Notes under the pieces: generated by a model
Database searches by the model: none
Told to the model about the DNA's origin: nothing
The model's input: only the letters and a program-made list of their open reading frames with translations
Shown here: positions 36,105-41,531 of the stretch, piece by piece
Numbering within the stretch: position 1 is the stretch's first letter
Layout of the letters: every line of letters starts with the position of its first letter
Program-made: the position numbers and the translations under genes
Assembly (NCBI GenBank): GCA_002325245.1
Contig: DCRR01000001.1
Span: forward strand, 8,312-72,311
From: Microbacteriaceae bacterium UBA1487
Lineage (GTDB): Bacteria; Actinomycetota; Actinomycetes; Actinomycetales; Microbacteriaceae
Direction of reading: 5' to 3'
DNA length: 64,000 nucleotides

Positions 36105-36215
36105 GCGCTATGCTCGGGGACGAACACGGGAGTCCGGTAGGCCGGGCTGAGAGGAAGCTCATCAAGCTTCGACCGTCGAACCTGATCCGGATCATGCCGG
36201 CGCAGGGAGGCATCT
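36105..36215 (+). promoter_or_regulatory. TPP (THI-box) riboswitch
   Basis: Conserved cores GGGCUGAGAGG and GAACCUGAUCCGGAUCAUGCCGGCGCAGGGAGG, with GGGGAC P2-type pairing. Located upstream of ykoE-like ECF S-component. Confidence 0.85.
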
Positions 36216-36248
36216 CTGGTTGATCGCCCATCGCGCGATTGATCGCCC

Positions 36249-36279: not shown

Positions 36280-36903
36280 GTGACCACGCAATCCACTCTT
36301 CCCACCTCCGCGAAGCGGACGATCGTCTGGCGCTGGCGCGTCGTCGACGTCGTCGTGGCCGCCGTCATCGGCGTCGCCGCCGGAGTGGTGTTCTGGGCCT
36401 TCGGGCTCGCCTACTCGATCCCGGGCGACGCGCTCGGGGCGCTCCTCCCCGGGGCCCAGGGCCTGCTGTACGGCGTCTGGCTGTTCGCGGGCGTGCTCGG
36501 CGGCATCATCATCCGCAAGCCCGGAGCGGCGCTGTTCACCGAACTGGTCGCGGCGAGCGTCTCGGCGCTCATCGGCACCTACTGGGGGCCGCTCACGCTC
36601 GTCTCCGGCCTCGTGCAGGGCCTCGGCGCCGAACTGGTGCTGCTCGCCTTCCTCTACGCCAACTGGCGCGTCTACGTCGCGATGCTCGCCGGCGCGGGTG
36701 CCGGCCTCGCGGCGGCACTCAGCGAGTTCGTCATCTACTACGTCGGCGTCGAGCCGGCCTTCATGGTCGTCTACGCGATCTGCTTCGCGATCTCGGGTGC
36801 TGTGATCGCCGGACTCGGCTCGTGGCTGCTCATGCGGGCGCTCGCGGCGACCGGGGCGCTCAGCCGCTTCGCCGCCGGACGCGAGCGGACCGCCGAGGTC
36901 TAG
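36280..36903 (+). CDS. ykoE: ECF transporter S component, YkoE-like (HMP/thiamine-precursor specific)
   Basis: 6-TM small membrane protein (WRVVDVVVAAVIGVAAGVVFWAF...) directly behind the TPP riboswitch and ahead of the duplicated ATPase and T component, the ykoEDC arrangement. Confidence 0.8.
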   Translation: MTTQSTLPTSAKRTIVWRWRVVDVVVAAVIGVAAGVVFWAFGLAYSIPGDALGALLPGAQGLLYGVWLFAGVLGGIIIRKPGAALFTELVAASVSALIGTYWGPLTLVSGLVQGLGAELVLLAFLYANWRVYVAMLAGAGAGLAAALSEFVIYYVGVEPAFMVVYAICFAISGAVIAGLGSWLLMRALAATGALSRFAAGRERTAEV

Positions 36904-36911
36904 GCACGCTC

Positions 36912-38408
36912 ATGACCCCACCCGTGACGCACTCGGACACCGCGACGCACCTCGGTGCGCCCGCGCGTCTGAGCGCGCACGGGTGGGGCTGGCGGCACGC
37001 CGGGCGACGCGCCTGGGCGGTGCGCGCGCTCGACGTCAGCATCGAGCCGGGGGAGCGGGTGCTGCTGCTCGGTCCTTCGGGCTCCGGGAAGTCCACGCTG
37101 CTCGCGGGCCTCGCCGGGGTGCTCGGCGGTGCGGAGGAGGGTGAGACCGAGGGGACGCTGCGCGTCGACCGGGATCAGCCCGCCGCCGCGCGCGGGCGCG
37201 TCGGACTGGTGCTGCAGGATCCCGAGTCCCACGCGGTCATGGCCCGCGTCGGAGACGACGTCGCGTTCGGTCCCGAGAACCTCGGGGTGCCGCGCGACGA
37301 GATCTGGTCACGCGTGGACGCGGCGCTGGCCGCGGTCGGGCTCGACGTCGGACGCGCGCACTCCACCTCGGCGCTCTCGGGCGGGCAGAAGCAGCGCCTC
37401 GCGCTCGCCGGGGTGCTCGCCATGCGGCCGGGGGCGCTGCTGCTGGACGAGCCGACCGCGAATCTCGACCCGGCGGGTGCCCGGGAGGTTCGCGACGCGG
37501 TCGCCGAGGTGATCGATCGCACCGGGGCGACGCTCCTCGTCGTGGAGCATCGAGTCGACCTGTGGCACGACCTCGTCAATCGCGTGCTGGTGCTCGGTGC
37601 CGATGGCTCGCTCATCGCCGACGGCACGCCGGCGCGGATTCTCGAGGAGCGCGGCGCGGAGCTGGCGGCCGGCGGAGTGTGGGTGCCGGGGCGGGAGCCG
37701 CGGCTCGCATCTCGGCCAGCAGGCTCGGCCGGCCCCGAGATGGTCTCGGCCACGGCGCTGCGCGTGGCCCGGGAGCGCGGCCGCCCGCTGCCGTGGACGC
37801 TCGACGCCACGTTCTCCGCGGGCGAGACTGTCGCGCTGACCGGGCCGAACGGCGTGGGCAAGTCCACGCTCGCGCTCACCCTCGCCGGCCTCGTTCCCCC
37901 CGCCGCGGGGAGCGTCGACGCGAGCCCGGAGCTGGCGGGCGGACTGGCCGGCGCCCCGCACCGCTGGCGCTCGCGCGAGCTGCTGACCCGCTTCGGAATG
38001 GTCTTCCAGGCGCCCGAGCACCAGTTCGTCGCGGCGACCGTGCGCGAGGAGCTCGCGGTCGGTCCCCGGAGTCTGGGGCTGTCCGAGGCGGAGGTCGAGG
38101 CGCACGTCGGCGGCCTGCTCGACCGACTCGGCCTGGCCGCGCTCGCGGGCGCGAACCCGTTCACGCTGTCCGGCGGGCAGAAGCGCCGACTCTCGGTCGG
38201 CACCGCCCTCGCGACGCGTCCGCGGGTTCTGCTCCTGGACGAGCCGACTTTCGGACAGGATGCGCTGAGCTGGGCCTCCCTCGTCGAGCTCATCGACGAG
38301 GTGCGTGCCGAGGGAAGCGCGGTGATCGCGGCATCTCACGATGAGCACTTCGTGCGCGAGGCTGCCACGACGCAGCTTCGGCTGACGGCAGCCGGGGTGG
38401 GCTCATGA
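36912..38408 (+). CDS. ykoD: ECF/ABC transporter duplicated ATP-binding protein, YkoD-like
   Basis: Two NBDs: [23 protein letters not shown] and GPNGVGKST/LSGGQKRR/LLLDEP. Confidence 0.9.
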   Translation: MTPPVTHSDTATHLGAPARLSAHGWGWRHAGRRAWAVRALDVSIEPGERVLLLGPSGSGKSTLLAGLAGVLGGAEEGETEGTLRVDRDQPAAARGRVGLVLQDPESHAVMARVGDDVAFGPENLGVPRDEIWSRVDAALAAVGLDVGRAHSTSALSGGQKQRLALAGVLAMRPGALLLDEPTANLDPAGAREVRDAVAEVIDRTGATLLVVEHRVDLWHDLVNRVLVLGADGSLIADGTPARILEERGAELAAGGVWVPGREPRLASRPAGSAGPEMVSATALRVARERGRPLPWTLDATFSAGETVALTGPNGVGKSTLALTLAGLVPPAAGSVDASPELAGGLAGAPHRWRSRELLTRFGMVFQAPEHQFVAATVREELAVGPRSLGLSEAEVEAHVGGLLDRLGLAALAGANPFTLSGGQKRRLSVGTALATRPRVLLLDEPTFGQDALSWASLVELIDEVRAEGSAVIAASHDEHFVREAATTQLRLTAAGVGS

Positions 38409-39199
38409 CGGCGACGCTCGCGCCGGCGACCGGACTCGTCACGACGTCGCCGCTCGAACGGATCAACCCGGTCGCACGGCTGCTCGCGGCGTTGCTGCTC
38501 GCCGCGGTGCTCGTCATGTCGATCGACCCGGTCTCGGCGGGCGTGGCCCTCATCCTCGAGATCCCGCTCGTGCTGATGAGCGGCCTCGGCTGGCGGGGAT
38601 TCTGGGCCCGCACCTGGCCGGTCTGGATCGCGGCGCCGTTGGCGGGGCTCACGGTGGCGCTATACGGGCGCGCCGGGGGCGCGGTGCTCTTCGAGTGGGC
38701 ACTCATCCGCATCAGCGAGGGCTCGCTCCTGCTCTCGCTCGCGACCGTGCTGCGCGTGCTGGCGATCGCGCTGCCCGGCATCGTGCTGTTCGCCCGGGTC
38801 GATCCGACCGATCTCGCCGACGGGCTGGCGCAGGTGCTGCGCCTGCCCAGCCGGTTCGTCCTCGGGGCGCTCGCCGCGTTCCGCCTGCTGGGAGTGCTCC
38901 GCGACGACTGGCGAGCCCTCGAACTGGCCCGGCGCGCGCGCGGAATCGCCGACCGCGGACGGATCCGTCGGTTCGCCGGCATGGCGTTCGCGCTCCTCGT
39001 GCTGTCGATCCGACGGGGGAGCACCCTCGCCACCGCGATGGAGGCGCGCGGATTCGGCGGCGACACCCCTCGCACCTGGGCGCGCGAGTCCCGTTTCGGC
39101 GCGAATGGCTGGCTGCTGCTCGTGGCCACCGGCGTCGTGGGGGGCATCGCCGTCGCCGTCGCCGTCCTGACGGGAGCGTGGACGTTCGTTGTCCAGTGA
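38405..39199 (+). CDS. ykoC: energy-coupling factor transporter transmembrane (T) component, YkoC/CbiQ-like
   Basis: CbiQ-family pattern with coupling helices ARRARG...RRG. ATGA overlap with the ykoD stop. Confidence 0.85.
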   Translation: MTATLAPATGLVTTSPLERINPVARLLAALLLAAVLVMSIDPVSAGVALILEIPLVLMSGLGWRGFWARTWPVWIAAPLAGLTVALYGRAGGAVLFEWALIRISEGSLLLSLATVLRVLAIALPGIVLFARVDPTDLADGLAQVLRLPSRFVLGALAAFRLLGVLRDDWRALELARRARGIADRGRIRRFAGMAFALLVLSIRRGSTLATAMEARGFGGDTPRTWARESRFGANGWLLLVATGVVGGIAVAVAVLTGAWTFVVQ

Positions 39200-39749
39200 C
39201 CCCGACGCGCTGAGCGCGCACCTGCTGCGCGAGGTGGCACGCGCGTGCCTCGGCTCCGCACCTCGACCCGTCGTCCTGATCGACGGCGGCTCCGGCGCCG
39301 GCAAGACCACCTTTGCGCGACGTCTGCTGTCGCTCCTGGCGACGCCCGCCGGCGAAGCGCAGCTCGTGAGCCTCGACGACTTCTATCCGGGCTGGGATGG
39401 GCTGCGAGAGGGCAGCGAGATGGTGCACGCGGATGTGCTCCGCGACCGCGATCCGGGCTGGCGAGGCTGGGACTGGCAGGCGAACCGGTCAGCCGAGTGG
39501 CATCCGCTCGACCCGCAGCGGCCGCTTCTCATCGAGGGATGCGGGGCGCTGAGCGCCGCCAACCGGCGCGGTGCGAGCTTTGGGATCTGGCTGGAGCTGG
39601 AGGCGGAGGAGCGCAAGCGGCGGGCGCTGGGGCGCGACGGCATCCTCTATGCTCCGCACTGGGATCGCTGGGCCGCTCAGGAGTCCGTCTTCCGGCTGGA
39701 GGAGCCCCCGGCGCCGCTCGCCGATCTGGTCATCGATCTGAACTCGTAG
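39189..39749 (+). CDS. P-loop NTPase, uridine-kinase/PRK-like (paralog 1)
   Basis: Walker A DGGSGAGKTT, then SLDDFYPGWDGL, WDW and LLIEGCGAL. TTG 39189 overlaps the ykoC end by 11 nt, so it is probably co-translated with the riboswitch-controlled operon. Confidence 0.7.
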   Translation: MSSDPDALSAHLLREVARACLGSAPRPVVLIDGGSGAGKTTFARRLLSLLATPAGEAQLVSLDDFYPGWDGLREGSEMVHADVLRDRDPGWRGWDWQANRSAEWHPLDPQRPLLIEGCGALSAANRRGASFGIWLELEAEERKRRALGRDGILYAPHWDRWAAQESVFRLEEPPAPLADLVIDLNS

Positions 39750-39776
39750 CCGCGGGTTTCTCGCTACTGTGGGGCC

Positions 39777-40346
39777 ATGGCGAGGGGGAAAGAGCAGCGG
39801 CCGGCGGAGATCCTGGTGGATCGGATTCGGGCGCGCGCGACAGATCGGATCGTCGTGCTTGTCGACGGGCCAGCGTGTTCGGGCAAGACGACGTTGGCGG
39901 ACGAGATCGCGTACGCGCTCAAAGCGCAGCTCGTGCACATGGACGCCTTCTACCCCGGTTGGGGAGGCCTCGAGGTCGGCAGCTCGATCGTGTCCAGTTC
40001 TCTGCTGGCTGCCGAGTCGCCGGGCTACCACCGCTGGGATTGGGCGACGGGCAAGCAGGCCGAGTGGCACAAGGTCAACCCTCGCAAGCACCTGGTGATC
40101 GAAGGCTCCGGCGCCCTCAGTGCGGAGAACCTCGCGCTGGCGACCTATGGCGTCTGGATTCATCTTCCGCTGCTGGAGCGCCGCGAGCGCAAGCGACTCC
40201 GTGACGGCAGCCTCAACATGGAGCACTGGGACTTCTGGGCGATGCAGGAGCGCGCGTTCTACCAGCGCGAGCGCCCCGATCTCATCGCGCACACCGTTCT
40301 CGACAGCGGGAGCAACGTGCTCTCGCCCGAGAAGACGGACGACTGA
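39777..40346 (+). CDS. P-loop NTPase, uridine-kinase/PRK-like (paralog 2)
   Basis: Walker A DGPACSGKTT, then HMDAFYPGWGGL, WDW and LVIEGSGAL. Clear paralog of the preceding gene, with its own leaderless start (TACTGT, 6 nt, ATG). Confidence 0.7.
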   Translation: MARGKEQRPAEILVDRIRARATDRIVVLVDGPACSGKTTLADEIAYALKAQLVHMDAFYPGWGGLEVGSSIVSSSLLAAESPGYHRWDWATGKQAEWHKVNPRKHLVIEGSGALSAENLALATYGVWIHLPLLERRERKRLRDGSLNMEHWDFWAMQERAFYQRERPDLIAHTVLDSGSNVLSPEKTDD

Positions 40347-41455: not shown

Positions 41456-41531
41456 GGGGCGACCGACGGGACTCGAACCCGCGACATCCGGCACCACAAG
41501 CCAGCGCTCTACCAACTGAGCTACGACCGCC
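41456..41531 (-). tRNA. tRNA-His (anticodon GTG), with encoded G-1
   Basis: Manual fold: G-1, acceptor GCGGUCG/CGGUCGC (2 G-U pairs), D-arm GCUC-AGUUGGUA-GAGC, anticodon arm CUGGC-UUGUGGU-GCCGG, T-arm GCGGG-UUCGAGU-CCCGU, discriminator C pairing with G-1. Confidence 0.9.

Follow-up and report, generated by a model that had tools for sequence, protein, structure and literature searches.

A PRK06547-family P-loop kinase behind thiamine importers of actinobacteria: a candidate thiamine kinase

The 64,000-nucleotide stretch analysed here (the window; contig DCRR01000001.1 of Microbacteriaceae bacterium UBA1487, a high-GC actinobacterium with a genome of 2.49 Mb) contains an operon for a YkoEDC importer of the energy-coupling factor (ECF) type, headed by a thiamine pyrophosphate (TPP) riboswitch. 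Directly behind the importer genes lie two adjacent genes for P-loop kinases, K1 (39189-39749, +) and K2 (39777-40346, +), which raises the question of what these enzymes phosphorylate. A gap in the thiamine pathway of this genome, together with the gene context of the kinase family, makes it quite likely that K1, and probably K2, is a non-orthologous ATP-dependent thiamine kinase that feeds the thiamine monophosphate (TMP) kinase ThiL.

The step from thiamine to thiamine monophosphate

The thiamine genes of the genome were inventoried by six-frame hidden Markov model searches. Thiamine-phosphate synthase (ThiE), the hydroxymethylpyrimidine phosphate (HMP-P) kinase ThiD and thiamine pyrophosphokinase (TPK) were not found in the genome by these searches. 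The thiamine kinase ThiK (TIGR02721) gave no match in the genome at an E-value of 1e-3, and none above cut-off in a comparison set of 41 genomes of the same order. Tblastn searches of the genome with the ThiE of a relative and with ThiB-like and PnuT-like proteins likewise returned no matches. ThiL is encoded elsewhere in the genome (225 bits), and the whole genome contains exactly one TPP riboswitch, that at 36120-36221 upstream of ykoE. Because the biosynthesis genes for ThiE and ThiD are missing, the organism must rely on imported thiamine, and since ThiL is kept while both TPK and ThiK are absent, the gap in the pathway is the conversion of thiamine to TMP. Canonical ThiK, TPK, ThiE and ThiD were ruled out as simpler explanations, all being absent from the genome. 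To our knowledge, no known enzyme supplies TMP for ThiL in such "ThiL only" genomes. Genome-based predictions of vitamin B1 auxotrophy and cross-feeding count them as thiamine users (PMC6593275).

The earlier note on this DNA, made from the letters of the window, had proposed hydroxymethylpyrimidine (HMP), thiazole or a related pyrimidine as the substrate. The kinase would then act on an imported precursor (HMP, HMP-P or hydroxyethylthiazole) in place of ThiD or ThiM. This would suit the importer as it has been annotated: YkoEDC was first predicted to import HMP, and in the lists of Rodionov's group YkoEDC is assigned to HMP, a variant called YkoEDC2 to thiamine (PMC6593275). ThiE and ThiD are also encoded by four relatives in which the operon or the kinase is present. 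However, HMP or thiazole would be useless in the source genome, because without ThiE there is no use for their phosphorylated forms. ThiE is likewise missing from 20 of the 25 genomes of its family, with ThiD absent too, so that HMP-P or thiazole phosphate would lead nowhere. Moreover, the same kinase is found behind importers of the thiBPQ-like and PnuT-like types, which are known to transport thiamine (PMC5749112). We therefore regard phosphorylation of a precursor as very improbable, and the substrate put forward earlier is probably the wrong one. With ThiL kept, TPK, ThiK, ThiE and ThiD absent, and these two other importers preceding the same kinase, thiamine itself is the likely substrate.

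Across the 41 relatives, the kinase family is present in 38 genomes, ThiE in 11 and a true TPK in 2. Every one of the 28 genomes in which both ThiE and TPK are missing encodes the kinase family, and ThiL is present in nearly all of them. The three genomes that do not carry it are G014 and G029, which are reduced, bear TPK and have no good ThiL, and G033, a prototroph with de novo synthesis, and none of the three has need of it; the hypergeometric chance of that placement, phylogeny ignored, is 286/10660 = 0.027. Most relatives with the same operon lack ThiE and ThiD as well as TPK and ThiK, and keep ThiL. In 18 further kinase-bearing genomes, TPK was absent from all, and ThiL was present in 16, including all five in which the kinase follows a PnuT-like transporter. 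Note that in G025-G040, in most families other than that of the window, open reading frames of ~400-460 residues match the N-terminal 50 residues of the TPK model weakly (38-40 bits). These resemble the cell-division protein SteA and are not TPK.

Importers that precede the kinase

The earlier note had suggested examining the synteny of the family with ykoEDC and THI-box elements. The link to thiamine uptake proved to recur far beyond this genome: the kinase family is found behind three non-homologous thiamine importers (ykoEDC, thiBPQ-like and PnuT-like), a recurrence that supports the idea, also of the earlier note, of a non-orthologous thiamine-linked kinase. THI elements in relatives were sought with a loose THI-box regular expression and with nhmmer profiles built from confirmed elements; homologous TPP riboswitches scored 55-69 bits.

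In the ECF type, the kinase gene directly follows ykoC in the window and in 13 further genera of the same family, all 13 of which have a THI element ahead of ykoE. The riboswitch-ykoEDC-kinase unit is also present in G163, from another family, with a riboswitch of 61 bits, and likewise in Corynebacterium lubricantis, Pseudoclavibacter, Cryobacterium, Aurantimicrobium and Agromyces. In Kocuria marina, a riboswitch-ykoEDC unit is convergent to the kinase gene at a distance of 1.1 kb.

The second type has an ATP-binding cassette (ABC) importer. In G022 (L056:7950-12150, -), a TPP riboswitch (55 bits) is followed by genes for a thiamine-binding protein (TIGR01254, 200.8 bits versus a cut-off of 93.4), a ThiP-like fused double permease, a ThiQ-like ATPase and the kinase. 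This thiB-thiP-thiQ cassette occupies the orn-clpS-DUF2017-zincin site at which relatives have ykoEDC, and the riboswitch is nearly identical. By this comparison of sequences, G022 represents a swap of the importer cassette at a fixed site with the riboswitch and the kinase retained. The same gene order was found in G007, with a riboswitch of 59 bits, and Leucobacter luti has riboswitch-thiB-thiP-kinase.

In the third type, a THI-like element precedes a PnuC-family transporter (PF04973, 121-134 bits), with a distant member of the kinase family following within a few bases. Five genomes show this arrangement: two Ca. Planktophila, one Nanopelagicales genome, and one metagenome-assembled genome each from Actinomycetales and Bifidobacterium. 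The best NCBIfam match of the linked kinase is NF005115, end to end with 95-111 bits, and its identity to K1 is 32%. The THI elements (L128:5203-5321 and L135:5272-5373, also in L125, L132 and L133) retain the CUGAGA half, which forms the pyrimidine sensor, while the P4/P5 half is changed (ACCAGUCCGGUAAUGCGGAUUG), which explains why they fall below the Rfam threshold. They may represent a variant class of riboswitch in which the recognition of the ligand is altered. In strains of the acI lineage, which are thiamine auxotrophs without known salvage enzymes, a THI element had been noted upstream of a pnuC-like gene (PMC5301498). PnuT is a facilitator that binds neither TMP nor TPP and needs a trapping kinase, and pnu genes usually adjoin the gene of a kinase that traps the vitamin (PMC5749112).

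Taken together, these contexts suggest the following sequence of events. Low TPP would permit expression of the operon through the riboswitch, and YkoEDC would bring in thiamine. The kinase, translationally coupled to ykoC, would phosphorylate the hydroxyethyl group of thiamine, yielding TMP and trapping the imported vitamin, and ThiL, encoded elsewhere in the genome, would turn TMP into the cofactor TPP. We also lean towards a broader proposal, that PRK06547 is the missing thiamine kinase of actinobacteria that have ThiL and lack ThiE and TPK (the window's family, acI/Nanopelagicales, some Bifidobacterium and Corynebacterium). In these it would replace ThiK and TPK and act as the trapping partner of ECF-YkoE, ThiBPQ and PnuT.

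A role in thiamine uptake could differ from a thiamine-to-TMP kinase: the protein might make TPP in one step, phosphorylate another vitamer or an antivitamin, or serve as an accessory ATPase of the importer. Gene context would be the same in each case and does not by itself name a product, and the partners of PnuT elsewhere are pyrophosphokinases (PMC5749112). On the other hand, a P-loop kinase with this fold transfers a single phosphate, the retention of ThiL in genomes without ThiE is sensible only with TMP as an intermediate, and an ECF-specific accessory function is at odds with the thiBPQ and PnuT contexts. We consider these roles unlikely.

The kinase could also be a housekeeping enzyme of nucleoside or other salvage, unrelated to thiamine, with its proximity to importers reflecting an ancestral gene order around orn-clpS that has been inherited. 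Several findings point in this direction. Orthologs in G005, G009, G017, G242 and eight Microbacterium species adjoin the zincin-DUF2017-clpS-orn block without importer or riboswitch. Members of the family in most other families of the order, and distant Streptomyces-type copies, are unlinked to thiamine genes; in 29 unlinked loci, no recurrent neighbour was found beyond generic ABC exporters and family synteny. The reading as a thiamine kinase has further points against it. In a maximum-likelihood tree, all ykoEDC- and thiBPQ-linked copies fall into one clade centred on the window's family (f1), and because the linked copies share this clade, much of the ykoEDC linkage amounts to inherited synteny plus operon transfer rather than many independent events. 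In G149, from a third family (f20), ykoEDC and the kinase occur without a riboswitch, and two of the THI elements before the PnuT-like pairs score 38.6 and 26.5 bits, below the Rfam threshold. G016 and G038 were scored as family-positive through distant homologs alone. Of 301 genomes sampled across the phylum, 24 carry the family, and 20 of these 24 have ThiE; the family as a simple marker of auxotrophy was ruled out by its presence in these ThiE-bearing genomes. Finally, in G032 the kinase and a PabB-like chorismate-binding enzyme form a single in-frame fusion (L063:6381-8570, -). As a general functional link, this fusion was ruled out, since it was seen in G032 alone.

Against a housekeeping role stand the three non-homologous thiamine importers that precede the kinase, also in distant orders, the substitution of the thiBPQ cassette for ykoEDC at the same site with riboswitch and kinase unchanged, and the conserved overlap of the kinase start with ykoC. 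In addition, copies from two other families are nested inside the clade of the window's family in the tree, suggesting that the whole ykoEDC-kinase operon was transferred into these two families as a block. The cassette swap, the block transfer, the third importer in distant orders and the fit to the pathway gap are not easily put down to chance synteny. A housekeeping function is thus improbable in our view, and a thiamine kinase remains the preferred reading. As a side observation, the region L033:11374-11505 (-) of G149 is a 130-nt spacer after a glyoxalase-like gene; the operon was present in one of eight sampled f20 genomes.

Operon layout, kinase fold and the second copy

The riboswitch aptamer (THI element) of the window extends over 36120-36221 (+) and matches RF00059 at full length (positions 1-105) with 54.3 bits (E 6.9e-10). 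This is exactly the Rfam gathering score, and the element is thus a borderline member of RF00059. The earlier note had recognised the riboswitch and placed it at 36105-36215; its presence is confirmed, with slightly different limits. The element escaped an Rfam gathering scan of the entire window and was detected when a short stretch was scanned. Borderline actinobacterial THI elements are therefore easy to overlook, and weak ones may be missed in large Rfam gathering scans of loci.

The riboswitch is followed by ykoE (36280-36903, +; PF09819 ABC_cobalt, 129.5 bits), the S or substrate-binding component, which starts with GTG at 36280, with GAAAGGG just upstream as read from the sequence. Next come ykoD (36912-38408, +; start ATG at 36912), a duplicated ECF ATPase with two ABC_tran domains (TIGR04520/TIGR04521, ~300 bits), and ykoC (38405-39199, +; stop TGA at 39197-39199), the T component (PF02361 CbiQ, 78.3 bits). 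With a YkoE-type S component, a duplicated ATPase and a CbiQ-type T component in this order, the genes belong to the YkoEDC ECF importers, and the ykoEDC assignment of the earlier note holds.

The genes are closely spaced. The gap between ykoE and ykoD is 8 nt, ykoD and ykoC overlap by 4 nt (ATGA), and the TTG start of K1 at 39189 lies 11 nt inside the end of ykoC, as had been noticed before. A congener has retained this TTG...TGA overlap. K1 and K2 are separated by 27 nt, a spacer with no more folding than shuffled sequence shows (z = +1.5), and no terminator-like sites were predicted on the + strand between 35900 and 40700. From this layout we infer that K1 and K2 are co-transcribed with ykoEDC. 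At 39765-39770 (+), 6 nt ahead of the K2 ATG, the hexamer TACTGT is a putative -10 box from which K2 could be transcribed without a leader; no sigma-70-type site was called at this position. The hexamer is conserved in the congener G002, where the spacing is 7 nt. A leaderless promoter is plausible, and K2 could be expressed just as well by read-through from K1. One base separates the end of K2 from the stop codon of a convergent zincin-like gene. Further downstream, a tRNA gene (window 41458-41530, -) falls within the long reading frame that the open reading frame finder gives for clpS, and the start of clpS must therefore lie downstream of the tRNA.

K1 (186 residues, TTG start) and K2 (189 residues, ATG start) share 45% identity over 161 residues (BLASTP, E 2e-43), in agreement with the two adjacent paralogous P-loop genes described earlier. 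The motifs listed in the earlier note were recovered (DGGSGAGKTT/DGPACSGKTT, DDFYPGWDGL/DAFYPGWGGL, LLIEGCGALSA/LVIEGSGALSA and HWDRWA/HWDFWA in K1/K2), except that the pattern W(R/H)xWDW applies to K1 (WRGWDW) and fails in K2, which has YHRWDW. Pfam gave weak AAA_18 matches only. K1 passes the NCBIfam model NF005115 (PRK06547, "hypothetical protein") with 181.6 bits versus a cut-off of 173, covering profile positions 14-169 of 172; K2 scores 167.3 bits, slightly below the cut-off, yet matches end to end. Corynebacterium glutamicum likewise encodes a member that scores above the cut-off. The closest named homolog of K1 is from an uncultured Schumannella sp., with further matches in Pseudolysinimonas, Salinibacterium and Glaciihabitans. 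Among 1.84 billion representatives, the family comprises 737 clusters at E <= 1e-10, whose members are named "ATP-binding protein", "hypothetical protein", "uridine kinase" or "gluconate kinase" in the databases.

An AlphaFold (AF2) model of K1, built from an alignment of 70 sequences, was obtained with high confidence (pLDDT 96, pTM 0.91). The top Foldseek matches were 3asy, 3w8r, 6n55, 1rz3 and 5b3f (E 1e-7 to 1e-6, TM 0.60-0.67, identity 15-22%); the folds most like the model are those of uridine-cytidine kinases (TM 0.65), of a Bacillus "possible uridine kinase", and of phosphoribulokinases and pantothenate kinases. By its modelled structure, K1 belongs to the uridine kinase/phosphoribulokinase (PRK)/pantothenate kinase (PanK) fold superfamily, i.e. 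to the small-molecule hydroxyl kinases. The placement in NF005115 and these folds bear out the earlier description of K1 and K2 as P-loop kinases of uridine kinase/PRK type. That the closest folds are nucleoside kinases would be compatible with a housekeeping role in salvage. However, K1 and K2 do not belong to the uridine kinases proper: the models TIGR00235 and NF004018 gave 17.9 and 21.3 bits versus cut-offs of 220 and 180, in the P-loop region only. A sequence search of the PDB matched a uridine kinase over residues 23-68 (E 0.006).

In the 70 family sequences, the Walker A residues G33, G38 and K39 and the lid arginines R145 and R149 are invariant. D63, which corresponds in the alignment to the catalytic Asp after strand 2 in uridine kinase, is present in 62 of the 70, and E116-G117 and five nearly invariant tryptophans, W69, W96, W134, W158 and W161, are conserved as well. 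The catalytic residues of P-loop kinases (Walker A, Asp, lid Arg) are kept by both K1 and K2, and K2 retains every family-conserved residue. K2 looks like another copy of the same enzyme type and is probably either redundant or adapted to a different thiamine vitamer.

The maximum-likelihood tree separates the histories of the two copies. K1 groups with the ykoEDC-linked copies and is, on this phylogeny, the ortholog of the single ykoEDC-linked copy of relatives. K2 groups with the copy of G002 and with the thiBPQ-linked kinase of G022 (SH-aLRT 99), and may be a remnant of a thiBPQ-type cassette. Between two congeners, K2 is 59% identical versus 79% for K1, and hence is the faster-evolving copy; a third congener has a single copy of the family. 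The K2 ortholog of G002 (L080:6486-7052, +) lacks D63, Y66, W69, W96 and W161. With the presumed catalytic Asp and four conserved aromatics gone, it is probably decaying. K2 is dispensable in at least some relatives.

Relation to known systems

A literature search found no paper on this family, on a P-loop thiamine kinase or on ykoEDC plus a kinase. If K1 is a thiamine kinase, a defined candidate gene fills the TMP gap for several abundant lineages, among them acI/Nanopelagicales, a very abundant freshwater lineage whose genomes were described as lacking nearly all salvage enzymes (PMC5301498). About 740 sequence clusters would gain a testable function, and the likely substrate of this YkoEDC importer would shift from HMP to thiamine. 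The family would also be a third structurally unrelated solution to thiamine activation, beside ThiK and TPK.

The proposed reaction, thiamine + ATP to TMP, is that of ThiK (YcfN; EC 2.7.1.89) of E. coli and Salmonella, the step before ThiL. ThiK has the aminoglycoside-phosphotransferase (APH)/choline-kinase fold, not a P-loop, and shows no sequence relation to K1 and K2, which do not match APH-type families and thus are not members of ThiK. Indeed, as the earlier note had stated, K1 and K2 are unrelated to ThiD, ThiM, ThiK and ThiN. The arrangement of the operon has its counterpart in pnuT-tnr3 operons, in which the gene for TPK/ThiN/Tnr3 likewise stands right after a thiamine importer gene under a THI element and the kinase traps the vitamin. 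TPK differs from K1 and K2 in having an unrelated fold and in producing TPP in one step.

With the uridine-cytidine kinase/PRK/PanK group (PF00485-like), K1 shares the Walker A motif, the catalytic Asp after strand 2 and the lid arginines. The K1/K2 family differs from uridine-cytidine kinases in its low identity (15-22%), its own Trp-rich motifs (YPGW, WDW, HWDRWA) and a thiamine rather than pyrimidine gene context. The ribosylnicotinamide kinase domain of NadR, paired with PnuC, is also a P-loop kinase that partners a Pnu facilitator and traps a positively charged vitamin. NadR belongs to another P-loop family (AAA_28), acts on another vitamin and has no THI element, so that the likeness is an analogy of logic and not of membership. 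The family to which the proteins do belong is NF005115 (PRK06547), whose cut-off K1 exceeds and whose model K2, like the linked relatives, matches from end to end; its entry carries no function, for which the phosphorylation of imported thiamine is our candidate.

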